Shown here: in pieces, positions 35,847-64,000 of the stretch
Numbering within the stretch: the first letter of the stretch is position 1
Layout: the number at the start of each line of letters is the position of its first letter
Assembly (NCBI RefSeq): GCF_015169395.1
Contig: NZ_CP063458.1
Span: 6,901,954-6,965,953, forward strand
From: Humisphaera borealis
GTDB lineage: Bacteria; Planctomycetota; Phycisphaerae; Tepidisphaerales; Tepidisphaeraceae
Length of the DNA stretch: 64,000 bases
Reading direction: 5' to 3'
Program-made: the position numbers and the translations under genes
Notes under the pieces: model-generated
What the model saw: only the letters and a program-made list of their open reading frames with translations
The model's database searches: none
Told to the model about the DNA's origin: nothing

Positions 35847-35873
35847 TCGCTGTTTCGAAACGGCCTTCATCTG

Positions 35874-35965
35874 GGTGCCATGGGCTGGCGTACTCGCCTG
35901 CCCGTGGCGGCGACATCGCAGTCATGCGACGCCACGGGCAGCGGAGTACCGTAGCCCATGCCACC
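35874..35965. repeat. family B palindromic element, copy 2
   Basis: ~85% identical to the 12563-12654 copy. Lies between the PSD1 and DUF1501 genes and contributes an in-frame ATG to the track ORF. Confidence 0.8.
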
Positions 35966-36001
35966 CAAACTCGGTTCTTTCGCCTACGTCTGAGGAATAC
36001 A

Positions 36002-47718: not shown

Positions 47719-49026
47719 ATGCCCACGACTCGACGCAACTTCCTTAAGTCAGCCGCGATGGCGTTGGGCGGTTTGTCGCTTCCGCAGCTACTCCGCGCCG
47801 AAGCACAGAACGGCATCCGGAACTCGCGCAAGTCGGTCATCATGATTTACCTGTGCGGCGCGCCGCCTCATCAGGACATGTGGGACCTGAAGATGGACGC
47901 CCCATCGGACATCCGCGGGCCGTACAAACCGATCGCCACTAATGTGTCGGGTATCCAGATCTCCGAGCATGCGCCGCGAATCGCGAAGATGATGGACAAG
48001 TTCGTCCCGATTCGCTCGCTGTACGGTTCGCCGAACGGCGCGCACGACTCCTTCATCTGTTACACCGGGCGGCCGCCTTCGGGATCGCCGCAGCCGGCGC
48101 GTGGCTGGCCGTCGCTGGGTTCGACGGCGTCGAAACTTCTGGGGTCGGTCCATCCTTCGATGCCGGCGTTCGTCGGGCTGGCCCCCGACGCCGGGCATCC
48201 GCCATACGGTTCGCCCGGGCATCCGGGTTTCATGGGCCCGAGCCATGCCGCGTTCCGCCCCAACGGCGACGGCATGAACGACCTCAAGCTCGAAGGCGTC
48301 ACCCTGGACCGCATGAACGACCGCACCGGGCTGCTTCGTCGCCTGGATACGCTGCGCCGGGACAGCGACAACAGCGGAAACGTTGACGCGATGGACGCCT
48401 TCCAGAACCAGGCGATGAATGTCCTGACGTCCAGCCGTCTCCTGGATGCTTTGGACGTTACCAAGGAGCCCGGTTCCGTCCGTGAGCGCTACGGCAAAGG
48501 GGACCCCAAGAACTACGGGGATGGCGCCCCGCTGAACCTCGAACATTTCCTGCTGGCACGACGGCTGGTGGAAGCCGGGGCGCGGGTTGTCACATTGAAC
48601 TTCGGTCGGTGGGATTTCCACGACAGCAACTACCCCCAGTTGCTCAAGCACTTGCCGCTCTTCGATCAGGGGGTCAGCGCCCTTGTCCAGGATCTGCACG
48701 ACCGCGGCATGGAGAAAGACGTCGCGGTCGTCGCCTGGGGCGAGTTCGGCCGAACGCCCACCATCAACAAAGACGGCGGTCGCGACCACTGGCCCCGCGT
48801 CGGTGGAGGGTTGCTGGCAGGCGGTGGATTCCGGACCGGGCAGGTGATTGGCGCCACTGATCGCCTGGGCGGCGAGCCGACCGATCGCCCCGTTCACTTC
48901 GGCGAAGTGTTCGCCTCGCTCTATCAGTTTCTCGGTTTGGATCTCAACCAGACAGTGCTGCACGATTTGTCAGGTCGTCCCCAATATCTGGTCGACGGCT
49001 GGAAGCCGATGCCTGAATTGCGGTAA
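47719..49026 (+). CDS. DUF1501 protein (Tat signal), no adjacent PSD1 partner
   Basis: MPTTRRNFLKSAAMALGG Tat motif. DUF1501 blocks (IMIYLCGAPPHQDMWD, GRDHWPRVGGGLLAGGG). Confidence 0.8.
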   Translation: MPTTRRNFLKSAAMALGGLSLPQLLRAEAQNGIRNSRKSVIMIYLCGAPPHQDMWDLKMDAPSDIRGPYKPIATNVSGIQISEHAPRIAKMMDKFVPIRSLYGSPNGAHDSFICYTGRPPSGSPQPARGWPSLGSTASKLLGSVHPSMPAFVGLAPDAGHPPYGSPGHPGFMGPSHAAFRPNGDGMNDLKLEGVTLDRMNDRTGLLRRLDTLRRDSDNSGNVDAMDAFQNQAMNVLTSSRLLDALDVTKEPGSVRERYGKGDPKNYGDGAPLNLEHFLLARRLVEAGARVVTLNFGRWDFHDSNYPQLLKHLPLFDQGVSALVQDLHDRGMEKDVAVVAWGEFGRTPTINKDGGRDHWPRVGGGLLAGGGFRTGQVIGATDRLGGEPTDRPVHFGEVFASLYQFLGLDLNQTVLHDLSGRPQYLVDGWKPMPELR

Positions 49027-49183
49027 TCCCCCGGAATGCGTTCCTGAGCCGCCAATCGCCATGTTTCAAGTGCGCCTAGGCGTTCATTTTCCCGAAACGC
49101 ACCATCTGCAAATTGCGCCAGTCACTTCGGTGTCTTGACAGGTGAAGGAACTCGAATAGAATCCTCAGCCCGAAGTTGGTCAA

Positions 49184-49257
<74 letters not shown>

Positions 49258-49262
49258 TTAAA

Positions 49263-49302
49263 GAACCCCGTTCCTGATGCAGGAACGGGGTTCTTCGTTT
49301 TG
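49263..49302 (+). terminator. rho-independent terminator after tRNA-Asp
   Basis: GAACCCCGTTCCTG-atgc-CAGGAACGGGGTTC perfect 14-bp stem followed by TTCGTTTTGG. Confidence 0.75.
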
Positions 49303-49785: not shown

Positions 49786-52461
49786 ATGAATCAGTCGTTC
49801 TGGAAGAAAGCTGTCCGCTTGTCTCGTTTGCAAACGACCGAGGCGGGCGGGTCGAATCACACTCAGGGTGTTTCCCTCACGCGCGCCCGCGTGGAACGGC
49901 TGGAAGACCGCCGACACTTTTCCGCCGGCCCCGGTTCCTCCGGGACGTCTGCCGGGTTGGCCCCGCTCGCCGCGCAGACCCTGGCACTGGGCACTCCGAG
50001 CATTGCATCGGTAACGCCCGCCAATTCGACGACCGGCGTTTCCGTGGATGCTTTCATCTCCACCGAACTGAATATCCCCAACAGCGGCGTCGACACGGCT
50101 TCGCTGACCCCCAATACCGTCTATCTCGAACGCGTCAGCGACGGTGTTCGCATCGCTTCGGTCCTGAACACCTCAGGCGGCGGTGACGTCATCGTGCTGC
50201 GGCCGGAACTGCCGCTCGATCCCAGCACCGCTTACAAATTTGTCGTCACGTCGGGCGTCCGGGATCTCAATGGCGTCGGGTTCTCCCCGTTCCAGAGCAC
50301 CTTCACGACCGGCGTTCCGCCGACGGACACGGCCTCGCCCATTGCCTTCGAGCAGGTCGAGCTTCCGACGACCAAAGGGCACCAGTTCTCGTCGGTCGTC
50401 GTCTGGGGCAGTTGGGTCACCGCCGGTACGCTGACGGGCGAGATCTATCGCTTCCCGTTGAAGGCCGATGGCACGCTCGGCACGCCGACGGTCATCAACA
50501 CGATCATTGACCACAACGGCGGGCCACGGTTCATCGTCGGCCTGGCGTTTGACCCGGCGTCCTCGGCGACGAACCAGATCATCTGGGTGTCGCACACGGC
50601 GACCTCGGGCCTTCAGGTCGGCGGTGCCCCGGGTGAAGACTTCACCGGCACCATCTCCGTCCTGTCGGGTCCAAACCTGGAGAACATCCAGGACAAGGTG
50701 GTCCACCTGCCACGGTCGGTCCGCGATCACCTGACGAATCAGATTTCGTTCGGCCCTGACCGAAAGCTCTATTTCACTCAGTCTGCCAATACGGCGATGG
50801 GCGCGCCCGACGTCGCGTGGGGCAATCGCCCGGAACGCCTGCTGAGCGCAACGATTCTTCAGCTGGATGTCAGCAAGATTGGCACAACACCACTTGACGT
50901 CCACACTGAAGACGCCGACCCCTACGATCCTTTCGCGGCCGACGCACCGCTGAAGATTTACGCCTACGGCGTTCGCAACGCGTACGACCTGGTCTTCCTC
51001 GACGGCAAGATGTACGCCCCGACGAACGGATCAGCCGCCGGCGGGGCGACCCCGGAAGGACCGGGCATCCCCGGTATTCCCAAGGTGACCACCGCCGAGA
51101 CCGACGCGCTTTACCTGGTTCAGCCGGGCAAGTACTACGGCCATCCCAACCCGCTGCACAACAAGTTCGTTCTCAACGGCGGCAATCCGACGAGCGGCAA
51201 AGACCCGTTCGAAGTCAAGCAATACCCTGTCGGAACCAAGCCGGAGTCGGACTGGCAGAAGCCGATCTACGATTTCGGTCAGCACCAGTCCCCCAATGGC
51301 TCGATTGCGTACCACAATTCTTCGACGTTCGGTGGTGCGCTCAAGGGGAAGATGCTGGTGGCGCGCTACAGCGGCGGCGACGACATCATCGTGCTGACGA
51401 TGGGCGCCGATGGGAAAGTGAGTAAGGCCGAAGAGGGGTTGCAGGGTCTTGCAGGTCTGAACAATCCGGTGGATATCGTCGAGCACTGGAAGACGGGCAA
51501 CATCTACGTAACGGAGTTCGGGGCCAAGGAATCGGAAGGCAAGATCACGCTGTTGCGTCCGACGACCCCGACGGTTCCGCCGGTGGTCCCACCCGTCGTG
51601 CCGCCGGTGGTGCCACCGGTAGTTCCGCCGACGGTGCCGCCCACGGTTCCCCCGGTCGTCTCTCCGCCTCCGCCGCCCCCTCCGGTATCGCCGCCGCCGC
51701 CTCCGCCGCCGACCGGCCCGCTGGCTGACTTGGCGACGGAAGTCACCAAGGTCGTCCTTCCCGCGAACGTTCCTTTTGGCACGGCGGTGAAGGGCACACT
51801 CCAGTTCCGCGTGTCCAACATCGGCGACAATTCGTTGACGGGTCTGATCCCGATCTCTGTCCGCCTCACGGCCGACACCACCACCGACACCGGCGACACC
51901 GAAGTGGTCCGCTTCTTCAGGTCGCTCAACCTCAAGGCCGGCCAGAGCAAGATCGTCAAGCTCAAGATCACCGAGTTGCCGGCGGTCGCCGACGGCAGCT
52001 ACCACCTTGGCGTGATGCTCGACCCGGAAAGCGCGTTGTCGGAGAAGTCGGAAACCAACAACACCGCCGTCACGACCGAGGTCTTCAATGTCGCAACGCC
52101 GAGCGTGGATCTTTCCGGCCAGTTCGTCACCACCCCGACGAAACTGGTGATCGGTAAGAAGGGCACGGCGAAATTGACCGTTTCCAACAACGGCAACGTG
52201 CCCGCGGTGGGTTCGATTATCGTGCAGGTCGTCGCGTCGGCCGACGGAACATCCGGCGCCGGCGATGTCGGACTCGGTGCGGTCCCGCTGAAGCTGAATC
52301 TGAAGCCCGGTGCATCCAAGGTGGCGACCCTCAAGCTCCTTCTTCCGCCGACGCTCGCGCCGGGAACCTACTTCATCATCGCATCCCTCGACTCGACCGG
52401 TGTCATCACCGAGTCGAACGAAGGCAACAATGCCGCGGTGACATCGCCCCTGGCACTGTAG
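49786..52461 (+). CDS. giant extracellular protein, paralog 1: Ig-like (Big_5/SbsA-like) + glucose/sorbosone-dehydrogenase-like beta-propeller + [T/V]VPP repeat linker + 2x CARDB
   Basis: CAGGAAG RBS then ATG (MNQSFWKK...). N-terminal RLEDRRHFSAG motif. GSDH-like blocks (HLPRSVRDHLTNQISFGPDRKLYF, YAYGVRNAYDLVF, YGHPNP). Linker TVPPVVPPVVPP...SPPPPPPP. Two C-terminal CARDB-like domains (DLATEVTKVVLPANV..., VDLSGQFVTTP...NNGN...). Confidence 0.8.
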   Translation: MNQSFWKKAVRLSRLQTTEAGGSNHTQGVSLTRARVERLEDRRHFSAGPGSSGTSAGLAPLAAQTLALGTPSIASVTPANSTTGVSVDAFISTELNIPNSGVDTASLTPNTVYLERVSDGVRIASVLNTSGGGDVIVLRPELPLDPSTAYKFVVTSGVRDLNGVGFSPFQSTFTTGVPPTDTASPIAFEQVELPTTKGHQFSSVVVWGSWVTAGTLTGEIYRFPLKADGTLGTPTVINTIIDHNGGPRFIVGLAFDPASSATNQIIWVSHTATSGLQVGGAPGEDFTGTISVLSGPNLENIQDKVVHLPRSVRDHLTNQISFGPDRKLYFTQSANTAMGAPDVAWGNRPERLLSATILQLDVSKIGTTPLDVHTEDADPYDPFAADAPLKIYAYGVRNAYDLVFLDGKMYAPTNGSAAGGATPEGPGIPGIPKVTTAETDALYLVQPGKYYGHPNPLHNKFVLNGGNPTSGKDPFEVKQYPVGTKPESDWQKPIYDFGQHQSPNGSIAYHNSSTFGGALKGKMLVARYSGGDDIIVLTMGADGKVSKAEEGLQGLAGLNNPVDIVEHWKTGNIYVTEFGAKESEGKITLLRPTTPTVPPVVPPVVPPVVPPVVPPTVPPTVPPVVSPPPPPPPVSPPPPPPPTGPLADLATEVTKVVLPANVPFGTAVKGTLQFRVSNIGDNSLTGLIPISVRLTADTTTDTGDTEVVRFFRSLNLKAGQSKIVKLKITELPAVADGSYHLGVMLDPESALSEKSETNNTAVTTEVFNVATPSVDLSGQFVTTPTKLVIGKKGTAKLTVSNNGNVPAVGSIIVQVVASADGTSGAGDVGLGAVPLKLNLKPGASKVATLKLLLPPTLAPGTYFIIASLDSTGVITESNEGNNAAVTSPLAL
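51563..51715 (+). repeat. 12-bp tandem repeat encoding [T/V]VPP x7 plus 2x SPPPPPPP (paralog 1 linker)
   Basis: ccg-gtg-gtc-cca-type units visible in the sequence; translated TVPPVVPPVVPPVVPPVVPPTVPPTVPPVVSPPPPPPPVSPPPPPPP. Confidence 0.85.
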
Positions 52462-52514
52462 AGCGACCGGTTCGCCGACCAGCGTCGGCGGCTTTGGCGA
52501 ACAGCTTTTCGACT

Positions 52515-52570
52515 GACGCTCACTCCTGATTACGTCCCTCGCGGGACGCCGGGGCTGAGCGTCTTTCGTT
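52515..52570 (+). terminator. rho-independent terminator after paralog 1
   Basis: GACGCTCA...(inner CGTCCCTCGCGGGACG hairpin)...TGAGCGTC followed by TTTCGTT. Confidence 0.6.
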
Positions 52571-52654
52571 GGTGGCAGCTAACACTTGCCGGCTGTGCCC
52601 TGTCGCCACGCGGCGACTTTCTTTTCCGAACCGCGTCACTAGACTTCGTCGCAA

Positions 52655-53497
52655 ATGAAGCTTTATCGCACCACACTCGGCCCGATGGTCGAAACCAAGG
52701 GGTCCTGGCACGTCGTCCCCGAACTGGCATGGGACGCGATCTTCGCGTTGCCCGACCCGCGCAAGATTCTCATGGAAGGCGTCGAGGCCCGCGGGGAGAT
52801 CAATCGTCGGCCGGCGCCTTCTGAAACCGATATCCTCGCGCCGATCGGCTCGCAGGAAGTCTGGGCGGCGGGGGTGACCTATCTGCGCAGTCGCGACGCC
52901 CGCAAAGAAGAAGCCAAGAGCGGTGGGGGCGGCGACTTCTACGACAAGGTCTACGACGCCGCCCGGCCGGAGATCTTCTTCAAATCAACCGCGCACCGCA
53001 CCGTCGGTCCCGGGCAGGCCGTCCGCATCCGCAAGGACAGCAAGTGGAACGTTCCCGAACCGGAACTGACGCTGGTGGTCAACCCGGCGGGGAAGATCAT
53101 CGGCTACACCGTCGGCAACGACATGTCGTCGCGCGATATCGAAGGCGAGAACCCGCTCTACCTGCCACAGGCCAAGGTGTACGACGCGAGCTGCGCCCTG
53201 GGCCCCTGCATCTACCTGCCCGAAGACGGCGCTCCGTTGCCGCCACTGACGGAGATCAAGCTGACAATCTCCCGCGGCGGCGTGCAGCAGTTCCTGGGCA
53301 TCACCGCGATCGCCAAGATGAAACGCCGGTTCGATGAACTGGTCGAGTACCTGTACCGCGATAACAGCTTTCCGCAGGGCGTTTTCCTGATGACTGGCAC
53401 GGGGGTCGTTCCGCCGGATGATTTCACGCTGCACAGCGGTGATGAGATTCGTATTGAGATCGGGCCGATCGGCGTGTTGAGGAATGTCGTGGCGTAG
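52655..53497 (+). CDS. fumarylacetoacetate hydrolase (FAH) family protein
   Basis: FAH-fold blocks (KIIGYTVGNDMSSRDIE, EGENPLYLPQAKVYD, GTGVVPPDDFTLHSGDEIRIEIGPIGVLRNVV). Confidence 0.8.
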   Translation: MKLYRTTLGPMVETKGSWHVVPELAWDAIFALPDPRKILMEGVEARGEINRRPAPSETDILAPIGSQEVWAAGVTYLRSRDARKEEAKSGGGGDFYDKVYDAARPEIFFKSTAHRTVGPGQAVRIRKDSKWNVPEPELTLVVNPAGKIIGYTVGNDMSSRDIEGENPLYLPQAKVYDASCALGPCIYLPEDGAPLPPLTEIKLTISRGGVQQFLGITAIAKMKRRFDELVEYLYRDNSFPQGVFLMTGTGVVPPDDFTLHSGDEIRIEIGPIGVLRNVVA

Positions 53498-53590
53498 GGG
53501 CATACGGCGTATGCCCCCGGCCGGCCGGCGCCGATGTCGCCCCTCTTCCCGACAGCACCCATTGCGAAGTCGGGCACACGCCGTGTGCCC
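53497..53590. repeat. twin near-perfect palindromes GGGGCATACGGCGTATGCCCC and GGGCACACGCCGTGTGCCC
   Basis: Two related ~20-bp palindromes 55 bp apart between the FAH and trpF genes. Confidence 0.65.
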
Positions 53591-53603
53591 CTACAAGGAC
53601 ACC

Positions 53604-54311
53604 TTGAACTCCACACCGAATCACCACACTCGCGTCAAGATCTGCGGCGTCCGCCATCCGGAAGACGCGGCCTACGCCGCACGCTCGGGGGCTGACGCCA
53701 TTGGCGTTATCTGCTACCCGAAGGCGTCGCGGTACGTCGCGCAGGAAGAGGCACGGCTGATCGTGCAGACGGCGCCACCGTTCGTGACGCCGGTGGCATT
53801 ATTCGTGGACTCAACGCCTGGCGAGATCGCCGCCGTCGTCTCGGCGATCGGGGCGACGTGCGTTCAGCTTCACGGCCACGAATCGCCGGACGTGGTCCGG
53901 AAGGTCAACCTGCCGGTGCTCAAGGCGATCCGCGTGGATCGCACGACGTTCGAGGCCGAGCTCGGCACCTGGCGGAAGGCTATCGCCGAGGGCGGGCTGG
54001 AACATCTGCAGGGATTGGTTCTGGAAACCGCCGCGGGAACCGGAGAGGCCGGCGTCGGCGGGACGGGATTGGCCAACGACTGGACGTTCGTCCGCCAGGT
54101 CGCCGCCAAGGGAGAGTTTGCCGGCTTGCCGCCGATCATTGCAGCCGGAGGTCTCACGCCCGAGACGGTGGGCGAGGTGATCCAGTCGGTTCGACCCTGG
54201 GCGGTGGACGTCAGCAGCGGCGTCGAAGTGGTGAAGGCCCGGAAATCACCGAAGCTGATCAAGGCGTTCATCGCGGCGGTGCGGCAGGCCGATCTGTCGA
54301 AAGCTGTGTGA
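53604..54311 (+). CDS. trpF: phosphoribosylanthranilate isomerase
   Basis: VKICGVRHPEDAAYAARSGADAIGVI...VQLHGHESP...PPIIAAGGLTPETV matches TrpF. No in-frame ATG near the conserved start; TTG at 53604 assumed, so the start is uncertain. The track ORF upstream of this overlaps two palindromes. Confidence 0.7.
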   Translation: MNSTPNHHTRVKICGVRHPEDAAYAARSGADAIGVICYPKASRYVAQEEARLIVQTAPPFVTPVALFVDSTPGEIAAVVSAIGATCVQLHGHESPDVVRKVNLPVLKAIRVDRTTFEAELGTWRKAIAEGGLEHLQGLVLETAAGTGEAGVGGTGLANDWTFVRQVAAKGEFAGLPPIIAAGGLTPETVGEVIQSVRPWAVDVSSGVEVVKARKSPKLIKAFIAAVRQADLSKAV

Positions 54312-54332
54312 AACGATTGCATTAAACGCGAT

Positions 54333-54409
54333 GGGGAACGCCGAGCTCCAGCCCGGCTCATCAGTCTCCGCAAGTCCGGTAAGGAGCCGAGCCGGAGCTC
54401 GGCGTTCCC
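54333..54409. repeat. hairpin element after trpF (26-bp arms GGGGAACGCCGAGCTCCAGCCCGGCTC / GAGCCGAGCCGGAGCTCGGCGTTCCC)
   Basis: Imperfect inverted repeat read by eye. Confidence 0.6.
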
Positions 54410-54628
54410 AGGGGTGCACCTCACTTCAGGCTTTCCACCGCACATCACAGCACGCGAGTTTTCGCCGCGCGTTGCTCCTCCGGCGTTCTCTCTGGCGCTT
54501 CTTTTGAGTTGCGACCCGGTAGCCCTGATAAGGGCCAGCCCGTTCCGGGCAGATGGGCGCTTCGGCCGAACCGACTACTGTTTGCGTGTCGCGTTCGGGG
54601 TCCCCCGAAGTTCGTACCGAGAGCAGCC

Positions 54629-56248
54629 ATGTTTGAAACCCTCGAAGACCGCCGTCTCTTCAGCGTCTACGACTTCACCAACGTGGGCACCCTGGTGCTG
54701 GCACCGGTCAGCCCGCCGGTGATCGTCACCGGGCCGACGGTGGTGAATCCAGCTCCGCCGACGGTGCTCGCCCCTGAAGGCGACCCGAACATGGAGGTCC
54801 GCAACTCGATCAAGCTGGTCGGCCAGACGTTGTACATCACCGGTACGTCCGCCCCCGACTCCTTTCAGGTCAACCCAGCCGGGGCGAGCCTGATCGTACG
54901 GCGCGGCTCGATCGAATCGTTCCCGTTCCCCGCTGCCCAGGTGAAGAACATCATCATGGTCGGCTACGAAGGTGCTGACGTCCTGTTCGTCGATCCCGCG
55001 ACGAATGTCCCCGCGACCGTGCTCGGCGGCGCGGGCGACGATCACGTCTTTGGCGGCGCGGCGGCCGACTACCTCGAAGGCGGCACCGGCAACGACACCA
55101 TCAAGGGTGCCAGCGGCAACGATGTCATCAACGGCGGCGACGGCAGCGACAAACTCTTCGGCGAAGCCGGCGACGACACCCTTCGCGGCTGGGCCGGCGA
55201 TGACACGATCGACGGCGGTGCCGGCCGCGACACCCTCTACGGCGCCGACGGCAACGACCAGCTCTTTGGCGGTCTCGACGACGACACCATCTACGGCGGC
55301 AACGGCGACGACACCCTCGTGTCGGTCTTCGGCGGCATCGACAAGGTCAACGGCGACCAGGGCTGGGACATCTTCGTCGCCGACAAGAAGGACGTCCTGA
55401 CCGACATGGACAACCTCGCCAACACCCGCAAGAGCGTTTACCGCATCGACAAGTTCTCCAACCCGACCAGCGGCAGCACCTACGCCACCGAACTGGGCAC
55501 CACCAACATCACCGATCCCGCTCTGACGTTCAGAGCCACGAAGTACCAGAACTTCGGCCACATCCCGATCTTCACGGCGTCGGGTCCGAACATCGGCGAC
55601 GTGCAGCAGAACCAGCTCAACGACTGCTGGCTCGCCACCACCGCCGGCAGCGTGGCCCGCTCCAGCCCCTGGGCGATCAAGCGGACCGTCGTTCCCCTGG
55701 GCGACGGCACCGTGATGGTCGCCCTCGGCGGGGGCTGCTACCGCGTGGACGCCGATCTCCCGACCGATGCCAACGGCAAGCCGATCTACGGTTCGATCGC
55801 CGGCCGCAAGGGTGACAGCCTCTGGTTCGGCCTGCTGGAGAAGGGGATGGCGTATCACATGAATTCGGGCAGCGGTTACAGCTACGGCGACGTCGAATCC
55901 GATACGCCGGGCGTCGCCTACGACGCGCTGCGGATTGGCTACGACCGCTCGACCCTGGTGCCGTTCGGTACGGACGAATCATTGATGTGGGACAAGATCA
56001 ACAGCAATGTCAGCTTGCGGGCGATCACCATCACCACCGAGCCGGCATCGCTCGGCGTGAACAGCGCCCTTCGCCCGTCGCACGCCTACTCGGTCGTCGG
56101 CACGTTCCGCCAGGGCAATGGGACGACGATGGTGATCCTGCGGAATCCGACCGACAAGAACGGCATGAATAGCGGCACCGACGGCATGGTGACGGTATCG
56201 GCGAGCACGCTCTATTCGTCGTGCCTCTTGTTGTACATCTCGAAGTAG
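54629..56248 (+). CDS. secreted RTX-repeat protein with C-terminal calpain-like (peptidase C2) cysteine protease domain
   Basis: N-terminal TLEDRRLFSVYDF motif. About 10 hemolysin-type Ca-binding nonapeptides (GGAGDDHVFGGAAADYLEGGTGNDTIKGASGNDVINGGDGSDKLFGEAGDDTL...). Catalytic-Cys block QNQLNDCWLATTAGS, His block PSHAYSVVG, followed by Asn-containing region. Confidence 0.75.
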   Translation: MFETLEDRRLFSVYDFTNVGTLVLAPVSPPVIVTGPTVVNPAPPTVLAPEGDPNMEVRNSIKLVGQTLYITGTSAPDSFQVNPAGASLIVRRGSIESFPFPAAQVKNIIMVGYEGADVLFVDPATNVPATVLGGAGDDHVFGGAAADYLEGGTGNDTIKGASGNDVINGGDGSDKLFGEAGDDTLRGWAGDDTIDGGAGRDTLYGADGNDQLFGGLDDDTIYGGNGDDTLVSVFGGIDKVNGDQGWDIFVADKKDVLTDMDNLANTRKSVYRIDKFSNPTSGSTYATELGTTNITDPALTFRATKYQNFGHIPIFTASGPNIGDVQQNQLNDCWLATTAGSVARSSPWAIKRTVVPLGDGTVMVALGGGCYRVDADLPTDANGKPIYGSIAGRKGDSLWFGLLEKGMAYHMNSGSGYSYGDVESDTPGVAYDALRIGYDRSTLVPFGTDESLMWDKINSNVSLRAITITTEPASLGVNSALRPSHAYSVVGTFRQGNGTTMVILRNPTDKNGMNSGTDGMVTVSASTLYSSCLLLYISK

Positions 56249-56277
56249 GCTTTCAGCCGGCAGGCCGGAACCCTGTG

Positions 56278-56805
56278 TCACGTCGGCGACTTTGGCGTGA
56301 GCTCACCCAGCAATGACTGCAGGTCCAGCCGCCGGGTGAACATCGCCAGTTCGCCGGCGGCATTTCGCGGCCAGACGTCGGGCGGGCGATCCCAATACAG
56401 TTCAACGCCGTTGTCATCCGGATCGTGCAGGTAGAGGGCTTCGCTGACGCCGTGATCGCTGGCGCCGTCGAGTTGAATTTTCGCGTCGATCAACCGTCGC
56501 AGGGCATCGGCAAGTGCCGGTCGAGTCGGGTAGAGGATGGCCAGGTGAAACAACCCGGTCGTGCCCGGAGGCGGGGGCGAACCGCCCAGGCTTTCCCAGG
56601 TGTTGAGTGCGATATGGTGGTGATACCCGCCCGCCGAAAGAAACGCCGCCTGATGTCCCATTCGCTGCGTCACTTCAAACCCGAGGACACCACGGTAAAA
56701 CCCGAGCGACCGCTCGAGGTCGGCGACCTTGAGGTGCACGTGACCAATGCGAGTGCCGGGGTGGATGGATTGAGGTGGGGAACTCGGATGAGTCAAAGTG
56801 TTCAT
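56278..56805 (-). CDS. VOC-family (glyoxalase/bleomycin-resistance/extradiol dioxygenase fold) protein
   Basis: Two betaalphabetabetabeta modules (IGHVHLKVADLERSLGFYRGVLGFEV, YHHHIALNTWE, LFHLAILYP). Confidence 0.7.
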   Translation of the reverse strand: MNTLTHPSSPPQSIHPGTRIGHVHLKVADLERSLGFYRGVLGFEVTQRMGHQAAFLSAGGYHHHIALNTWESLGGSPPPPGTTGLFHLAILYPTRPALADALRRLIDAKIQLDGASDHGVSEALYLHDPDDNGVELYWDRPPDVWPRNAAGELAMFTRRLDLQSLLGELTPKSPT

Positions 56806-56832
56806 GGTTGCGCTTGCAGGTTCACGGGACTC

Positions 56833-56920
56833 GTTAGCCGCGACGCGCAGCGGAGCGTGTCTACGGCGCGGGGAACACGTTCGAGCCTTACGAAACGCTC
56901 CGCCCCGCGTCGCGGCTAAC
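56833..56920. repeat. hairpin element between VOC and FAD-oxidoreductase genes
   Basis: GTTAGCCGCGACGCGCAGCGGAGCGT ... ACGCTCCGCCCCGCGTCGCGGCTAAC. Confidence 0.6.
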
Positions 56921-56926
56921 CCACTG

Positions 56927-59029
56927 CTACTTCTTCTCCACCCACTGCACCGCGTCCGCGATGACGTATCCCGTCGCGCCTTCGTTGCTGACGACGACCG
57001 TCGCGGGCTTGTCGGTGGAGAACTCGAACACGCCCAGCGAGATGAACGCGCCCTCGATCGGTGCCGCCTTAGTCTGATCGACCTTCACCTTCTCAATGCC
57101 GCCGGCGTGGTGGATCTCGACCGTTGCGTTTGTCGCCCGGTTGGGGTTGACGCTGTACGACAGCCGTACCTCATACTTGCCGGCGGCGGGGAGCCTGGCC
57201 TCATAGCGGGCGGTCGCCGGCTCGCCTTTCCTGGCGGCGCGGTAGCCGTCGCCGACATAGTTGGGCTGGCTCGATCCGATCTGCCATTCGCCGGTGGTCT
57301 TCGCCTGTTCGTCGTCGACGACGACGCCGGGCAGGGCACGAAACTCCAGGCCCTTCTTCACGCCTCCGGCCTTCTGTGGGCCGGTGTACTCCAGGACCTG
57401 TCCGTCCTTCAGCAGCTTCTCGCGCAGCTTGGCGTATGGCACATCCTGCACGGCGATGTCGGCGTCGATCGCCATCGCGGCGGCGGTCGCCGACGATTCG
57501 CCGAGGATCATGAACACCGGTTCCATGCGGATCGAACCGAACGCGATGTGCGAGCTGCTGACACAGACCGGCACGAACAGGTTGTTCGCCTGCCCCTTCT
57601 TCGGCACGAGTGCTCCGTAGGCGATCTCGTACGGCCCCTTCAGGCCGACGCCGATGTCGCCTTCGTTCTGCACGTGGCCTTCCGGCGTGACGTACCGCTG
57701 GATGTTGTGCGAGTCGATCGTGTAGCTGCCCATGCCGACTGAATCGGGCGTCGGGCGGCGCTTGAGCAACTCGTTCTCGGTCATCACGTAGCTGCCGATC
57801 ATGCGGCGAGCCTCGCGGACATAGATTTGGTGCGACCAGCCGCCGTTATCGACGAACTCATCTTTCGGCAGGCCCCACTTCTGCATCGCTTCCTGGACGT
57901 CCTTGGGCACGCGCGGGTCGTTGGCGATGAAGTAGAGCCAGCCCTTCTGATAGGTCTCATGTTCTTTCAGGATTTCCTTCCGGCGCTCGTAGCTGGCGTC
58001 GGGGTAGTCGTAGTTCATGCCGATGTTGTCGGTGCTGAACGGGCCGTGGTTATTGGTGTCGGTCTTGTGATTGGGGATCGGGTCGAACTTGTTGAAGGTC
58101 TGCCGCCAGCCCTTCTCAAAAACGCGCAGGAGCAGTTCGTACTGTTTGGGGTCATAGCCGTCGGGCTTGGGGAAGGGGATGCGGTTTTCTTCCTTGTCGG
58201 TCAGGCACATGCGGTAGCAGTAGGCCTGGACCTTCTTGTCGCCGGAGCCGTATTCGCCGGGCTTCTCGGCGGTGATGCGCGGCAGCAGGCCGCTCTTGGG
58301 GTCGCCGGGGATGACGTAGGGGCTGATGTTCATCGTGCCGAAATGATGCTGGTGGTGCAGGATGCCCACCTGCACGCCGTTCCACTTCTCGTCGTAGATG
58401 CTGTTAGCCTCGCGGCCGACGTGGTAGTCCACGCCCGCTGCGGCCATCAGGTCGCCTTCGTAGGTGGCGTCGATGAACATCTTGCCGGTGTAGGTCTTAC
58501 CGCTGAGGGTGGTGATGGAAGTGATCTGGGCGCCGTCCTTCTTCACGCCTTTCGCCCGGTCGAGCAACTCATCGCGAACGACGGGGATCTGATGTTCCTT
58601 AACGAAGTCTTCGAACACTCTTTCGGCGGCGTGGGGTTCGAAGATCCACATCGTGCGGTTCTCGCCGTCGATGGCCGGCGTGCCCTGGCCCTTGTTGCCG
58701 TACTCTTCCTTCTTCTGCCACTTCCAGGCGGCGTCTTCGTTGTAGTGCTTCCAGATACGCTGATAGAACTCGCGCGACAGCCCGCCGATGACGGCCTTGT
58801 TACCGGTGTCGGTAAAGCCGAGCCCGCCGGAGGAAAGGCCGCCGAGGTGCTTGTCGGGGGAGACGACGATGACCGTCTTGCCCATTTTCTTCGTCTGCAC
58901 GGCGGCCGTGACAGCGGCGCAGGTGCCGCCGTAGATGACGACGTCATGAGCGCCCTCGGCAGGTGTTGCTGCATTGACAGGCGTCGAACAGCCGGCCAGC
59001 AGGACGGCCAGCAGAAGTACTGAGCGCAT
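56927..59029 (-). CDS. FAD-dependent oxidoreductase family protein (FAD_oxidored, PF12831-like), secreted/lipoprotein
   Basis: Signal peptide with LLAGCS lipobox. FAD fold VVIYGGTCAAVTAAVQTKKMGKTVIVVSP...GGLSSGGLG. 700 aa. Confidence 0.7.
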   Translation of the reverse strand: MRSVLLLAVLLAGCSTPVNAATPAEGAHDVVIYGGTCAAVTAAVQTKKMGKTVIVVSPDKHLGGLSSGGLGFTDTGNKAVIGGLSREFYQRIWKHYNEDAAWKWQKKEEYGNKGQGTPAIDGENRTMWIFEPHAAERVFEDFVKEHQIPVVRDELLDRAKGVKKDGAQITSITTLSGKTYTGKMFIDATYEGDLMAAAGVDYHVGREANSIYDEKWNGVQVGILHHQHHFGTMNISPYVIPGDPKSGLLPRITAEKPGEYGSGDKKVQAYCYRMCLTDKEENRIPFPKPDGYDPKQYELLLRVFEKGWRQTFNKFDPIPNHKTDTNNHGPFSTDNIGMNYDYPDASYERRKEILKEHETYQKGWLYFIANDPRVPKDVQEAMQKWGLPKDEFVDNGGWSHQIYVREARRMIGSYVMTENELLKRRPTPDSVGMGSYTIDSHNIQRYVTPEGHVQNEGDIGVGLKGPYEIAYGALVPKKGQANNLFVPVCVSSSHIAFGSIRMEPVFMILGESSATAAAMAIDADIAVQDVPYAKLREKLLKDGQVLEYTGPQKAGGVKKGLEFRALPGVVVDDEQAKTTGEWQIGSSQPNYVGDGYRAARKGEPATARYEARLPAAGKYEVRLSYSVNPNRATNATVEIHHAGGIEKVKVDQTKAAPIEGAFISLGVFEFSTDKPATVVVSNEGATGYVIADAVQWVEKK

Positions 59030-59482
59030 AAGACCTCCAGAGGAAGCGAATCAAGGACATCGAACCACGCACGTCGGACCAAGACCCCGCCGCCGATACG
59101 TTCCGCCAGATCCCAGGCGGCGAGGCTCGACAGTCTGGTGGAGTGGGGCGGAAGATTCAATCGCAAACCCCGGTCATGCAAGCTGGGACACTGACTGCAC
59201 GGGCCGTCGGTCGGCCACAGGCGTACCAGCTTTGGAGGTCTTCTGGAGCCTTGCAGTGCCAGTTGCGTGAATCAGACAACGCTCGATTGGGCACGCGAGC
59301 AAAATTCTAGGAAATCCATTGCAGCGGCCTCTGCTGCGGACTAGATTCTCGCCCGGACGTCGGGCTGTAGTGACAAGCAGTCGCTTGTCGGCGGCGTCTC
59401 ATGACGAGCAACTCAAGGACGAGCGTCTGACGTTCCATCCACTGCCGAGCAGTGGATGCGATTGTGATCGTGAGGCACAAGG

Positions 59483-62293
59483 ATGGTTGGGCAATCTGGG
59501 TACGTGCGTTCGGAATGGAGTCCGACGGCCGACATCGTTCGGCGGCGGCACTCCCCGGGTCACACCCGCTTCGTCGCAGAATCCCTCGAATCACGACGCC
59601 TGTTCGCCGCCATCGGGGGTGGCTCGTCTACGTTGGTGGACTCGGCCAACTCGGTGTTGGCTGCGGCTGTGCTGACTTCGCCGCAGGTGCGGTCCGTCAA
59701 GCCGACCGCCAACGCGAAAAATGTGCCGACCACCGGCTTCGTGTCCGCCGAGTTGATTCTGCCCAACGGCGGTGTCGACACGGCGACCGTGCTTTCCAAG
59801 AACGTCTACCTCTACAACGTTGCGGCAAAGACCACGGTGCCGGCCGTCGTAAACACCTCCGGTGGCGGGGACGTCATCGTCCTCAAGCCGTCCAAGGCGC
59901 TTGCGGCCAACACACAGTACCGCTTCGTGCTGACGTCGGGCCTGCAGGACGTGCAGGGGGTCGGCTTTGCGCCCTTCGAGTCGCTCTTCACCACCAGTGC
60001 CACCACCAGTCCGCCGTCCAACTCCCCGGCGAAGTTCACGCAGGCACCCCAGGCGAGTTCCGCGGGTCACAACTATTTCGGACTGGCGATCGGCCCCGAC
60101 GGCAGGCTCTACGCCAGCAGCGACGACGGCCGCATCTACCGCTTCGCGATCGAAGCCGACGGCTCCCTCGGCACGCCGTCGGTGTTCGATATCGTCCGCG
60201 CCCGCAACGGCGGCAGCCGGTTCATCCTGGGGATGGCGTTCGATCCCAGGAGCACGCCGACCAACCCGATTCTCTGGATCACGCACACCGCGACCTCATC
60301 GCTGGTGCTGGGCGGAACCGTCGGCGCCGATTTCAGCGGGAAAGTCAGCGTGGTCAGCGGACCCTCGCTGGGCCAGTACCGCGACGCCGTCGTCAACCTG
60401 CCCCGGTCGGTCCGGGATCACGCGACCATGCAGCCGACCTTCGGCCCGGATGGCGCGCTGTACTTCTGCCAGGCGTCGCAGTCGGCCATGGGCAAGGCCG
60501 ACATCATCTGGGGGAACCGCCCGGAGCGGCTGCTGTCCGCGGCGATCCTTCGGCTGGACGTGGGGGCGGTCGGCAGCTCGACGCTCGACGCCAAAACCCC
60601 CGACGCCGGCGGCACCTACAACCCTTCCTCGCCCGGTGCGCCGTTGACCATCTACGCCGATGGCGTTCGCAACGCGTTCGACCTCGTCTGGCACCGCAAC
60701 GGACAGTTGTACGCCGCCGCCAACGGCAGCGCCGCCGGCGGCAATACGCCCGCCGGTGCCGGTGCGCCGGCGCTTTCGGCCGTCAGCAAGGCCGAGAGCG
60801 ATTTCCTGTTCCGTATCACCCGAGGCGGGTACTACGGTCATCCCAATCCCCAACGCAAATACTACGTTCTCAACGGCGGCAATCCGACCGCGGGCAAGGA
60901 TGCCTACGAAGTCACCGACTATCCCGTCGGACAGAAGCCCGATCCGGCGTGGCGGCCGGCGGTTTACGACTTCGGCGCCCACCGCGCCCCCTCCGGCACG
61001 ATCGAGTACCGCGGCGGCAGCTTCGGCGGCGCGCTCGACGGAAAACTGCTCGTCGCCCGCTACAGCGGCGGCGACGACATCATCGCGCTGACGCTCGGCG
61101 CAGGCGGCAGCGTGACCAAGGCCGAGACCGGCATCTCCGGCCTGACCGGGCTGGCCGATCCGGTTGATCTGGTGCAGACGCCTGATAGCGGAAATCTTTA
61201 TGTGATCGAATTGGCGCGGCAGCGGATTACGCTGCTACGCGCCGCGACCACGGTGCCCCCGACCGTACCTCCAGTCGTTCCGCCTGTCGTTCCGCCCGTC
61301 GTCCCCCCGACTGTGCCGCCGACGGTTCCTCCAGTAGTGCCGCCCACAGTGCCGCCCACTATCCCACCGACCGTCCCACCCGTGGTTCCGCCGGTCGTCC
61401 CGCCGACTGTTCCTCCCACCGTTCCCCCGGTCGTACCACCCGTCGTGCCGCCCACGGTGCCACCGACGGTTCCGCCCACAGTTCCTCCTACGGTGCCCCC
61501 GACCGTTCCGCCGGTGGTTTCTCCGCCGCCCGCGCCGCCGCCCGCAGCGCTCGCGGACCTGACGCCGCTGGTCACGAAAGTGGTGTTGCCGTCGAGTTTC
61601 GCGTTCGGCACGCCCGTGAAGGGGACGCTGTCGTTCCGCGTGACCAACGCCGGCGGGCTTTCGTTCTCGGGACCGGTACCCGTCTCGGTGCAGTTGTCGG
61701 CCGACGGGACGGCCGATCCCGGCGATACCGAGGTCACGGCGTTCTCCAAATCGGTCCGCTTGCGACCCGGCGGCAGCGCCAGCGTCAAGCTCAAGCTCTC
61801 GGCGTTGCCTTCGATTGCCGCCGGCAGTTATCACCTGAACGTCGTGCTCGATCCCGCCGGGCTGCTGACCGAGGCGTCGGAGACGAACAACGCCGCCGCG
61901 ACGACCGAAACCTTCGCCATTTCCGCGCCCAACGTCGATCTCAGCGGCGCGTTTGTCGTCGGGCCGTCGAATCTGGCGATCGGCCGGCGGCGGCTCATCA
62001 AGATGAACCTCAGCGCCGCGGGCAACGTCGCGGTGAACCAGACCATCGTCGTGCAGGTGGTGGCTTCCACCGACGATACGCCTGACGCCGGCGACATCGA
62101 CATGGGTGCCGTCCCGGTGAAGCTGAAGATCCTGCCGGGGCAGACCAAGTCGGTTTCGCTGAAGGTCTATCTGCCCCCAAACATGGCGCCGGGCATCTAC
62201 CGCATCATCGCCACGATCGATTCGCCCCAGTTGCTGGCCGAGTCGAGCGAGACGAACAACATCGCGATGACAAATCCGCTGATCCTGAAGTAG
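59483..62293 (+). CDS. giant extracellular protein, paralog 2: Ig-like + GSDH-like beta-propeller + expanded [T/V][V/I]PP repeat linker (~22 units) + 2x CARDB
   Basis: Collinear, ~60% identical to 49786..52461 (e.g. IYRFAIEADGSLGTPSVFDIV..., HLPRSVRDHATMQPTFGPDGALYF, YGHPNPQRKYYVLNGGNPT). N-terminal SLESRRLFAAIGG motif. Exact start uncertain: first ATG of the ORF was used. Confidence 0.75.
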   Translation: MVGQSGYVRSEWSPTADIVRRRHSPGHTRFVAESLESRRLFAAIGGGSSTLVDSANSVLAAAVLTSPQVRSVKPTANAKNVPTTGFVSAELILPNGGVDTATVLSKNVYLYNVAAKTTVPAVVNTSGGGDVIVLKPSKALAANTQYRFVLTSGLQDVQGVGFAPFESLFTTSATTSPPSNSPAKFTQAPQASSAGHNYFGLAIGPDGRLYASSDDGRIYRFAIEADGSLGTPSVFDIVRARNGGSRFILGMAFDPRSTPTNPILWITHTATSSLVLGGTVGADFSGKVSVVSGPSLGQYRDAVVNLPRSVRDHATMQPTFGPDGALYFCQASQSAMGKADIIWGNRPERLLSAAILRLDVGAVGSSTLDAKTPDAGGTYNPSSPGAPLTIYADGVRNAFDLVWHRNGQLYAAANGSAAGGNTPAGAGAPALSAVSKAESDFLFRITRGGYYGHPNPQRKYYVLNGGNPTAGKDAYEVTDYPVGQKPDPAWRPAVYDFGAHRAPSGTIEYRGGSFGGALDGKLLVARYSGGDDIIALTLGAGGSVTKAETGISGLTGLADPVDLVQTPDSGNLYVIELARQRITLLRAATTVPPTVPPVVPPVVPPVVPPTVPPTVPPVVPPTVPPTIPPTVPPVVPPVVPPTVPPTVPPVVPPVVPPTVPPTVPPTVPPTVPPTVPPVVSPPPAPPPAALADLTPLVTKVVLPSSFAFGTPVKGTLSFRVTNAGGLSFSGPVPVSVQLSADGTADPGDTEVTAFSKSVRLRPGGSASVKLKLSALPSIAAGSYHLNVVLDPAGLLTEASETNNAAATTETFAISAPNVDLSGAFVVGPSNLAIGRRRLIKMNLSAAGNVAVNQTIVVQVVASTDDTPDAGDIDMGAVPVKLKILPGQTKSVSLKVYLPPNMAPGIYRIIATIDSPQLLAESSETNNIAMTNPLILK
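61249..61550 (+). repeat. 12-bp tandem repeat encoding ~22x [T/V][V/I]PP (paralog 2 linker)
   Basis: Same unit as in paralog 1 but about three times as many copies. Confidence 0.85.
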
Positions 62294-62411
62294 GGGCGAA
62301 ACAGGCTAAGACTTAGAAGATGTCGCGATGACGAGATTCGGCCTTTCTTGCAACTGAACCCACCCGCATATTCGGACGATGACGTGACAGGCGTCTTTCC
62401 GGAGCGCTGGC

Positions 62412-63449
62412 ATGGATCCGATCAACACGCTCATCTCCAAGATCAAGGCGCTCGGCCGTCAGTTCATTGAGCCGGGGGCTCAGTTCTCGATCTTCGCGCT
62501 GGCGTGCGCCTTTGCGGTCGCGGTCGGCTTTCTCTACCTGCGGCAGCGCCGCCGGCGGGGCCGGGCGAGCCTGGCCGCGGTGTTGCGGGCGGTTTGCTCC
62601 CGGCGGGTGTTTTTCAACCCCTCCACCTACGCCGACGCCGGCTATCTCCTCATTAATACCCTCTCGCTGGGTGGGCTGATCGCCTGGGCGATGATCTCCA
62701 CCGGCGCGGTCTCGGCCTGGATTACCGCGGGGCTGGGGAACGTCTTCGCCACGCCGACTGCGACCACCTTGCCGGACTGGCTGACCCGCGCCGGGGCGAC
62801 GATCCTGTTCTTCCTCGCGTACGAGTTCGGCTACTGGCTGGATCACTACCTGAAACATCGTGTGCCGTTCCTGTGGGAGATGCACCGCCCCCATCACACC
62901 GCCGAGGTGCTGACGCCGCTGACCGTCTTCCGCGTCCATCCGCTGGATTCCCTGGTCTTCAGCTTCGTCCTGGCGATCACCGGGGGCGTGACGGCGGGCG
63001 TGGTGAACTTCGCGCTGGGCAAGCCGGTGCTCGAACTGACTCTTGACGGCACCAACGTGCTGCTGGTGGTCTTCTTCTACGCGTACGTCCACCTGCAGCA
63101 TTCGGAGATCTGGATTCCGTTCCGTGGCTGGGCCGGCCGGTTGTTCATGAGCCCGGCCCATCACCAGATCCACCACTCGAGCGACCCGGCCCACTTCAAC
63201 ATGAACCTCGGTTCGTGCCTGGCGATCTGGGACTGGGTCTTCGGCACGCTGTCGATCCCCGCCAAAGAGTCCCCGAGACTGAAGTTCGGGGTGGACGATG
63301 CCGAGCCACACCCGCACGCCCCTTCGCGGTTGCTGCTCACACCCATAGCGCGGGTGGCCAGGGCATTGGCGCGGATGGTTCTGCCGACCAAGGCGAGGGA
63401 AGAGGTTGTTCCGGACAGCACAGGGGTAGTCGAGCAGAACGCGAACTGA
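62412..63449 (+). CDS. fatty acid hydroxylase / sterol desaturase superfamily membrane protein
   Basis: His boxes HYLKH, HRPHH, HHQIHH in a polytopic membrane protein. Confidence 0.75.
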   Translation: MDPINTLISKIKALGRQFIEPGAQFSIFALACAFAVAVGFLYLRQRRRRGRASLAAVLRAVCSRRVFFNPSTYADAGYLLINTLSLGGLIAWAMISTGAVSAWITAGLGNVFATPTATTLPDWLTRAGATILFFLAYEFGYWLDHYLKHRVPFLWEMHRPHHTAEVLTPLTVFRVHPLDSLVFSFVLAITGGVTAGVVNFALGKPVLELTLDGTNVLLVVFFYAYVHLQHSEIWIPFRGWAGRLFMSPAHHQIHHSSDPAHFNMNLGSCLAIWDWVFGTLSIPAKESPRLKFGVDDAEPHPHAPSRLLLTPIARVARALARMVLPTKAREEVVPDSTGVVEQNAN

Positions 63450-64000
63450 AGCATCGGCCGGCGCACAAGGCTCGCCACGGAGTTGCCTTGCCCTGAATGG
63501 CGTTCTTGGAAACTCGGCGTCTTGGCGTTCATCTCTTTGATTCCTGGGCAGATGCAATCGGGGCGCGGCGGCGGCGTCGTCGTCCGCGGAGTACGCCGCT
63601 CAGAATTCAGTTGAAATCTTCGAGCTGGAACATAACATATACCGTACAAATATAGCTGCATCGTCGGCTTCATGCGTGAGCCCGGCGGTGCCTGGTCTCC
63701 GTGCGCCGATCGAGCGGGTGTGATCCGGCGGTCATGGCGTGGACTCCGCGGGGACAATCATCCGTCCGGCGATCGGCAGGCGATCGTCGGGAACAGTCTG
63801 CTTGTTGCGATGGGGGCATGCACCCGTGCCCGTATCGTGTTCTGTCTTCCGCTGCGCGCGGGCCAAGGAACCGTCCCCGCTCGATCATGACAACTGCGAG
63901 TCCGCGAATCGCGGACACCCACAACGGCTCGGGCGATCGGACTCGATCGCGCCGGGTGGTTTGGTTTGGGTTTAGGTTGAGGGGAAGAGACCGGAAGACG

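Follow-up and report, generated by a model that had tools for sequence, protein, structure and literature searches.

The window analysed here, a 64,000-nucleotide stretch of the Humisphaera borealis genome, contains two genes on the same strand, A and B, whose products combine an Ig-like domain (Big_5), a six-bladed beta-propeller related to the glucose/sorbosone dehydrogenase (GSDH) family, a proline-rich stalk and two tandem CARDB domains. We propose, with confidence and doubt about equally balanced, that A and B are anciently diverged paralogs, each made of an exported, catalytic propeller that acts on a sugar or glycan, a spacer and a CARDB surface module, and that the genes around them are neighbours rather than partners. 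On the best reading, both would be surface-displayed carbohydrate-active enzymes. A planctomycete-type N-terminal signal, LExRxL(F/L), would export them, as the position of the motif and published proteomics suggest, and the propeller would most likely be a catalytic module working outside the cytoplasm. From the pocket in which soluble glucose dehydrogenase (sGDH) binds pyrroloquinoline quinone (PQQ) and Ca, this module would keep the general base (Asp-His) and the Arg(-Asn), with invariant residues of its own replacing the rest, and its binding of PQQ in the canonical manner is doubtful. The polyproline segment of (T/V)VPP units would act as a rigid spacer, and the C-terminal pair of CARDB beta-sandwiches would be a generic surface module, serving retention or binding, at the site where other phyla have PA14, CBM6, CBM35 or FN3 domains, the tail of a type IX secretion system (T9SS) or a membrane anchor. 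A and B are members of a large, conserved and uncharacterised soil-bacterial family with a GSDH fold, of which they are a lineage-specific format with stalk and CARDB tail.

Open reading frames (ORFs) and translations agree with the two collinear paralogs of 891 and 936 amino acids reported in a preliminary description of this DNA, and Pfam matches to Big_5, GSDH and CARDB in both proteins bear out the architecture given there. That description was too generous in calling proteins of just about 900 residues giant and in putting their identity at about 60%, since we measured 50.8% across 915 columns (BLASTP), with 50.9% in the core formed by Big_5 and the propeller and 54.5% in the tail. A separate pairwise BLASTP of A against B gave just two spurious short alignments despite the end-to-end match of 51%, probably owing to composition-based adjustment or masking set off by the proline repeats. 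The window holds just these two copies of the core. At the DNA level, the genes are about 66% identical, with no similarity in the 500 bases 5′ of each start codon or in approximately the first 260 coding bases; an AGGAAG sits 9 nt 5′ of the ATG of gene A.

The pair is thus real and diverged, given the DNA identity, the unrelated flanks and an independent assembly: the exact B protein is also found, with the flanks of B, on a Logan contig (L083, SRR12905382), and most of the CARDB tail of A is matched on a second one (P0121). Identical flanks, which the preliminary description had named as the mark of an assembly duplication artefact, are not what we see, the stalks differ in length and no point in favour of such an artefact was found, so that we give this explanation practically no credence. 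The match on P0121 (1,294 bp) to window positions 51790-52350 runs through about 158 identical residues of the A tail and then goes out of frame, which could reflect a frameshift carried by a related strain or a faulty assembly of this short contig.

The propeller and its cofactor pocket

The AlphaFold2 model of the B core, built from a 114-sequence alignment, has a predicted local distance difference test score (pLDDT) of 89.9. Its N-terminus is disordered and leads into an Ig-like domain and then a propeller of six blades, to which GSDH and AA12 proteins are the nearest solved structures. Foldseek further matches HHIP and the Ig-plus-propeller structures 3kya, 4hw6 and 3tc9 over the full two-domain length. 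Both proteins pass the gathering threshold of GSDH (PF07995, 25 bits), with 28.8 bits for A and 36.4 for B, and an hhalign comparison of the core family with sGDH, whose sequence was checked against 1C9U, gave a probability of 96.7% and an E-value of 3e-10, being significant across blades 1-4. A phmmer search of B against PDB sequences returned low-complexity repeat matches only, for example to circumsporozoite protein.

In sGDH, Lys377, Arg406 and Arg408 hold the PQQ carboxylates, Arg228 and Asn229 contact the quinone oxygens, and His144 is the general base. The PQQ- and Ca-binding residues, by which the preliminary description had proposed to judge the propeller, are kept in part. Asp143-His144 corresponds to Asp312-His313 in B and D314-H315 in A and is present in all 114 sequences (hmmsearch, hhalign), as is Arg228 (Arg396 in B), while Asn229 (Asn397 in B) is kept in 87 of the 114. 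Gln246 is replaced by an invariant Asn414, the position of G247 is kept and that of E253 is aromatic. Where sGDH has its Ca loop (EQGPNSDDE), the core family has a longer invariant loop, NGSAAGGNTPA, with about 20 residues (NGSAAGGNTPAG...) inserted ahead of the equivalent of D252. In blades 5 and 6, the equivalents of the remaining ligands appear to be gone across the 114 sequences: Trp346 becomes Gly, Lys377 Ser or Asn, Arg406 Asp or Asn, and Arg408 Leu or Val. The hhalign match to sGDH is non-significant in these two blades, and this mapping was made by eye from AlphaFold2 strand positions and local motifs.

Thus, the basic residues that grip the PQQ carboxylates are probably absent family-wide, and as these three appear to be missing, the label of PQQ dehydrogenase is doubtful. 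In its fold and in part of its catalytic apparatus, the propeller resembles GSDH proteins, but that it belongs with the enzymes dependent on PQQ is not established and is probably untrue. The alignment of 114 sequences has 37 invariant columns, and the invariant residues that would make up the pocket are R308, Y327, D340, W343, E348, N414, D440, H453 and N455. The conservation of the Asp-His pair, the Arg and about 10 more polar residues across phyla, at about 50% identity, is more suggestive of an active site than of a surface for binding.

The core family, its export signals and its C-terminal modules

The constant unit of the family is Big_5 plus the six-bladed propeller, about 580 residues in total. 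A search with residues 1-590 of B found more than 1,366 proteins at E<=1e-5; the matches listed are 46-70% identical and come from several phyla. A scan of species-representative genomes with the sequence of B alone gave no close relative; with a profile, it found the family, confirming at least 588 of 600 pattern-matched stretches (one genome per species) in taxa that include Tepidisphaerales, Actinoplanes, Chitinophagaceae and Solirubrobacteraceae. Many metagenome-assembled genomes of Tepidisphaerales or Phycisphaerae carry several core copies each. Around half of the homologs stop within 30 residues after the core, and others continue into CARDB (P0027, P0029 and P0076), into PA14, FN3 and CBM6 or CBM35, into FN3 and a galactose-binding-like domain, or into a T9SS sorting tail. 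Hence, the architecture that the preliminary description called unusual has a core that belongs to a very large family, and it also occurs, as core plus CARDB tail, in three other proteins, two of which (P0027 and P0029) have a proline-rich spacer as well. Its remark that no characterised protein has the layout of Ig-like domain, propeller, stalk and CARDB has held, as none turned up, and our literature search for a characterised Big_5 plus GSDH protein found none.

The N-termini of the family vary in the same manner. The core LE(D/S)RR(L/H)F(S/A) occurs in A, in B and in the product of a gene lying between them, an RTX-repeat calpain-like protease (regex). These three proteins, encoded within 12 kb, carry it without a classical hydrophobic signal peptide. 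Elsewhere in the window, the motif matches once, inside an ORF of the minus strand near 34.6 kb, and we take this match as chance. At the same position in 120 homologs, an LExRxL(L/F)S motif was found in 32 (regex), and the others have a membrane anchor or a Sec signal peptide, as read by eye; in homologs from other phyla, a Sec signal or anchor fills the place of the motif. Export signals and C-terminal modules are thus interchangeable across phyla in this family.

The planctomycete motif has been published as a putative export signal, and in the Tuwongella immobilis proteome, 20 of 52 motif-bearing proteins were detected, 8 of them in the sodium dodecyl sulfate (SDS) fraction only (PMC8567305). 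The motif proteins of the SDS-soluble fraction include one with a glucose dehydrogenase domain (PMC8567305). Given these proteomic data and the location of the motif where homologs have a Sec signal or anchor, an extracytoplasmic or surface location of A and B, as envisaged in the preliminary description, is a well-supported prediction. A, B and the calpain-like protease offer three clean examples of this still-unexplained motif exactly where relatives carry Sec signals or anchors, and they could be handy substrates for testing how it works.

The stalks are about 50% proline, built of [TVI][VTI]PP units (7 in A and 22 in B) and encoded by imperfect 12-nt DNA repeats. Behind them, when the tails were split before scoring, three of the four CARDB units exceeded the cutoff of PF07705 (22.7 bits); the second unit of B reached 21.4 bits, yet aligns with the second unit of A. 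The AlphaFold2 model of the B pair (pLDDT 84.2) shows two all-beta domains, predicted beta-sandwiches, and its Foldseek neighbours are generic tandem Ig-like pairs, such as transglutaminase beta-barrels, the RbmA matrix protein, alpha-2-macroglobulin and adhesin repeats, not recognised carbohydrate-binding modules (CBMs). An exhaustive profile search with the pair found 11,965 cluster representatives at E<=1e-3, mostly of 1-8 kaa and with up to 22 copies, whereas a word-indexed search with the tail gave 2 matches only. Among the proteins matched by the profile, the planctomycete N-terminal motif was found in 40 of 148, and some ends read as Bacteroidota T9SS tails. The abundance of the tail in large multi-copy proteins, together with the fold match to generic tandem Ig-like pairs, points to a generic surface-protein module. 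Recent gene conversion of the tails was considered and rejected, as their identities (54% for A and B, 45% for B and P0027, about 54% for A and P0027, tblastx) are comparable to those of the core.

An action of the propeller on sugars or glycans is suggested by the fusion of the core, in relatives, to PA14, FN3, CBM6 or CBM35 and a galactose-binding-like domain. Nevertheless, several points weigh against the proposed reading. Catalysis is deduced from conservation alone, in a family with no characterised member; A and B themselves have no fused CBM, and CARDB has no demonstrated ligand. The loss of the PQQ ligands is probable, not proven, given that blades 5 and 6 were mapped by eye, and R526, which precedes the Lys377 position by two residues, might conceivably stand in for the lost Lys. 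In addition, the scores against Planc_extracel (PF07595, consensus RRLxxExLExRxLLA), 16.1 bits for B and 15.0 for the calpain-like protease, fall under the Pfam cutoff of 25.5 bits, and A gave no match. No C-terminal anchoring signal was identified in A or B, so that they may be either retained at the surface or released.

Genuine extracellular sugar dehydrogenases using PQQ and Ca (or a lanthanide), that is, bacterial analogues of the fungal AA12 pyranose dehydrogenases passing electrons to some acceptor, would account for the GSDH score above threshold, for the retained equivalents of His144, Asp143, Arg228 and Asn229 and for the automatic names given by JGI and NCBI ("glucose/arabinose dehydrogenase", "PQQ-dependent sugar dehydrogenase"). 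Moreover, Teredinibacter turnerae has secreted GSDH proteins with CBMs, and thousands of bacterial six-bladed PQQ propellers have been proposed. Set against this are the family-wide replacements at Lys377, Arg406, Arg408 and Trp346, as mapped by eye, the apparent replacement of the Ca loop, NCBIfam TIGR03606 (non_repeat_PQQ) scores of 22.1 and 20.1 bits against a cutoff of 434.55, and the CxxCH cytochrome motif, found in 0 of 120 homologs. A recent preprint demands all nine PQQ residues of the Coprinopsis cinerea pyranose dehydrogenase (CcPDH), a signature carried by 483 of 2,290 six-bladed propellers, approximately a fifth. We therefore consider a PQQ dehydrogenase rather unlikely. A non-catalytic propeller, which would make A and B surface binders of glycans or other ligands, or adhesins, in the manner of HHIP or the SusE/F-like "auxiliary nutrient binding proteins" of Bacteroides, seems to us somewhat less probable still. 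The Foldseek matches to HHIP, 3kya, 4hw6 and 3tc9 over both domains fit such a role, as do the name of CARDB (cell-adhesion-related), the frequency of the tail profile in giant surface proteins and a layout of stalk and tip like that of fibrillar adhesins. However, the Bacteroides proteins match with low TM-scores only (0.22-0.35), the stalk of an adhesin usually lies between anchor and tip, while no anchor was identified at either end of A or B, and the invariant polar residues described above speak for an active site.

Beyond the proposal of surface-displayed carbohydrate-active enzymes, it is conceivable, with a probability well short of even, that the core represents an enzyme family that acts outside the cytoplasm, is widespread among soil bacteria (Planctomycetota, Actinomycetota, Bacteroidota and Acidobacteriota) and is routinely misannotated as PQQ-dependent sugar dehydrogenases. 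Such a family would have retained just the His/Asp base and the Arg/Asn of that fold, and its rebuilt pocket, with the invariant residues listed above, would support a new activity that is independent of a cofactor or uses a different one, the planctomycete stalk and CARDB tail being its surface form. If so, this would be a new carbohydrate-active activity, for instance of the lyase, lactonase or isomerase type. In any case, the dehydrogenase label borne by thousands of exported Ig-plus-propeller proteins of soil bacteria finds no support in their predicted cofactor pocket, and the modules fused to them, for carbohydrate binding or the cell surface, vary from phylum to phylum. Work on a single member would put a widespread annotation right and might bring to light a further extracellular activity on carbohydrates.

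Duplication, synteny and neighbouring genes

The closest homolog of A, P0027, is 67% identical over its full length and has the same stalk and CARDB tail; its locus (L002) shares with the window the tRNA-Asp gene, the A ortholog, an FAA-hydrolase-family gene and trpF, and gene content diverges after trpF. The closest homolog of B, P0001, matches it over the core only (65% identity), lacks CARDB and lies among other neighbours (L001). A and B resemble each other (49-51%) less than either resembles its own homolog, so that their duplication is old and predates the lineages of P0027 and P0001. In L001, a metagenome contig, a different GSDH plus PKD protein of 688 aa is encoded directly upstream of P0001 (7823-9889), so that unrelated GSDH-fold genes stand side by side there.

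The alternative, in line with the preliminary description, is that A, B, the RTX-calpain, a VOC protein and a flavin adenine dinucleotide (FAD) oxidoreductase form a single surface apparatus arising from a recent tandem duplication that is still diversifying. The genes are physically close, three of the seven proteins have the export motif, and the FAD oxidoreductase bears a lipoprotein signal. Nevertheless, the seven-gene block is shared with neither L002 nor L001: the former keeps the tRNA and three genes named above, and the latter has other neighbours. In addition, clustering of the neighbours of 80 core-family loci gave no recurrent family, an apparent second cluster proving to be antisense ORFs of high-GC Actinoplanes. 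Two nearby core copies were found in just 2 of 82 other loci (tblastn). Inside the block, there are a FAA-hydrolase-family gene and the housekeeping trpF, orientations are convergent as well as divergent, and a terminator-like hairpin follows A at 52602-52617. With limited synteny, no recurrent neighbour, mixed orientations and this hairpin, A, B and their neighbours form no functional locus, and the genes in between are ordinary neighbours, not partners. Synteny largely refutes the apparatus, which we now hold to be very improbable. As a locus, the region is ordinary, with two old paralogs and unrelated neighbours (Table 1).

Table 1. Features in and around genes A and B, by position in the window
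Feature	Position	Strand	Description	Evidence
tRNA-Asp(GTC)	49184..49257	+	upstream of A; also upstream of A ortholog in L002	
Gene A	49786..52461	+	891 aa: export motif, Big_5, GSDH-like propeller, Pro stalk, two CARDB	ORF, translation, Pfam
A, LEDRRHF motif	49900..49920	+	planctomycete export motif type	regex scan, all six frames
A, Big_5 Ig-like domain	49996..50310	+	aa 71-175	Pfam PF13205, 47.0 bits
A, six-bladed GSDH-like beta-propeller	50341..51561	+	~aa 186-592; boundaries from alignment to model of B	Pfam GSDH 28.8 bits across aa 261-577
A, proline-rich stalk	51556..51735	+	60 aa, 52% Pro, 7 (T/V)VPP units, two PPPPPPP runs	
A, two tandem CARDB domains	51721..52458	+		Pfam CARDB 29.9 and 36.8 bits on tail halves
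FAA-hydrolase-family gene	52655..53497	+	~76% identity to L002 (tblastx)	Pfam 71.4 bits
trpF	53484..54311	+	phosphoribosylanthranilate isomerase, housekeeping	Pfam PRAI 105 bits; NF002298 185 bits (equivalog cutoff 215)
RTX-calpain	54626..56248	+	RTX + calpain-like (C2) cysteine protease	HemolysinCabind 115.5 bits in 5 stretches; Peptidase_C2 36 bits (cutoff 23.8)
RTX-calpain, LEDRRLF export motif	at 54641	+		regex scan; Planc_extracel 15.0 bits
VOC/glyoxalase-family protein	56278..56805	-	convergent with RTX-calpain gene	Pfam Glyoxalase 52 bits
FAD_oxidored (PF12831) + C-terminal Golvesin_C protein	56927..59029	-	lipobox-type signal LLAGC; divergent from B	385.7 and 84.9 bits
Gene B	59483..62293	+	936 aa, domain order as in A	ORF, translation, Pfam
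B, LESRRLF export motif	59585..59605	+		regex scan; Planc_extracel 16.1 bits
B, Big_5 Ig-like domain	59675..59995	+	aa 65-171; beta strands at residues 68-171	Pfam 46.1 bits; AlphaFold2
B, six-bladed GSDH-like propeller	60035..61252	+	aa 185-590	Pfam GSDH 36.4 bits
B, proline-rich stalk	61247..61561	+	105 aa, 48% Pro, 22 (T/V/I)(V/T)PP units	
B, two tandem CARDB beta-sandwich domains	61547..62290	+		Pfam 33.6 and 21.4 bits; AlphaFold2 model

The tRNA-Asp gene is preceded by a sigma-70-like promoter (TTGACA, 16 nt, TAGAAT; 11 of 12 consensus positions; window 49135-49298) and followed by an apparent GC-rich hairpin with a T-run at about 49264-49300. In L002, too, this tRNA precedes the A ortholog, at a distance of approximately 590 bp, so that it marks a conserved chromosome context rather than the edge of an island, and a tRNA-linked genomic island was rejected. 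The RTX-calpain, VOC and FAD oxidoreductase genes of the preliminary description are all present between A and B, while the FAA-hydrolase-family gene and trpF had gone unlisted. These two overlap by 14 nt as listed, and the true start of trpF probably lies downstream, as the L002 ortholog was called at 233 aa against 275 aa here; the PRAI domain begins at residue 51 of the listed ORF.

The start codon of the RTX-calpain gene may lie further upstream than listed, as its ORF opens at 54509. The Cys (NDCWLA), His (SHAYSV) and Asn (LRNP) motifs of the calpain domain are intact by eye, and a comparison of this domain with PDB sequences gave no match at E<=0.01. Its RTX repeats lie N-terminal to the protease domain, unlike the C-terminal block of RTX proteins secreted by the type I system, and among the genes annotated from 33.5 to 63.5 kb, we recognised no type I ATP-binding cassette (ABC) exporter and membrane fusion protein pair; the sole ABC ATPase gene of this interval precedes one for a binding-protein-dependent permease. 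This protein appears to be a separate exported protease with the same export motif as A and B. The combination of FAD_oxidored, Golvesin_C and a lipobox in the minus-strand gene next to B is an uncharacterised exported flavoprotein architecture. Downstream of B, the longest ORF, of 414 aa on the minus strand (62313-63557), has no family match and is probably a high-GC shadow ORF; an FA_hydroxylase gene that is also called on the Logan contig overlaps it on the plus strand (62412-63449). Elsewhere in the window, a DUF1501 gene comes after a PSCyt2 plus PSD1 gene (33540-37468), and another DUF1501 gene, which seems to be an orphan, lies just upstream of the tRNA (47719-49026). DUF1501 also occurs near a core-family gene in two other loci (L012 and L034), too few to call an association.

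Comparison with known systems

The soluble PQQ glucose dehydrogenase of Acinetobacter calcoaceticus (GdhB, 1C9U) and TTHA0570 (2ISM) show 14-27% identity, but A and B lack equivalents of Lys377, Arg406, Arg408 and Trp346, on the mapping described above, have an apparently replaced Ca loop, and add the N-terminal Ig domain, the planctomycete export motif, the stalk and CARDB. Among the AA12 pyranose dehydrogenases, we compared CcPDH (6JT5/6JWF) and TrAA12 (6H7T/6I1T). CcPDH has a cytochrome domain and a CBM1, whereas A and B have no cytochrome and carry CARDB in the place of the CBM, and the nine-residue PQQ signature of CcPDH appears incomplete in their family. TERTU_2567 and TERTU_3803 of T. 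turnerae, compared by description only, are bacterial, secreted proteins that join GSDH to binding modules, as A and B would, although they carry CBM5/CBM10, cytochrome c and classical signal peptides, unlike A and B.

Extracellular six-bladed propellers of the GSDH-like or NHL-like type are also found in HHIP and in the Bacteroides proteins BT_3476 (3TC9) and BACOVA_00264 (4HW6), the latter two with an N-terminal Ig-like domain as well. These are non-catalytic binders, whereas the family of A and B keeps invariant residues of the catalytic type and has a lower structural similarity to them. With regard to export, the N-terminal ...ExLExRxL(L/F)(S/A) motif is common to A, B and surface proteins of the Planc_extracel type (PF07595) from Rhodopirellula baltica and T. 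immobilis, although the scores available for our proteins fall below the family cutoff. The best homologs point to a source among Tepidisphaerales-like Phycisphaerae, not among the Planctomycetia. For the RTX-calpain, the nearest counterpart is Glr4140 of Gloeobacter violaceus, in which HemolysinCabind (x8) likewise precedes calpain C2; ours has 5 RTX stretches and the planctomycete export motif, both proteins being known from sequence alone.

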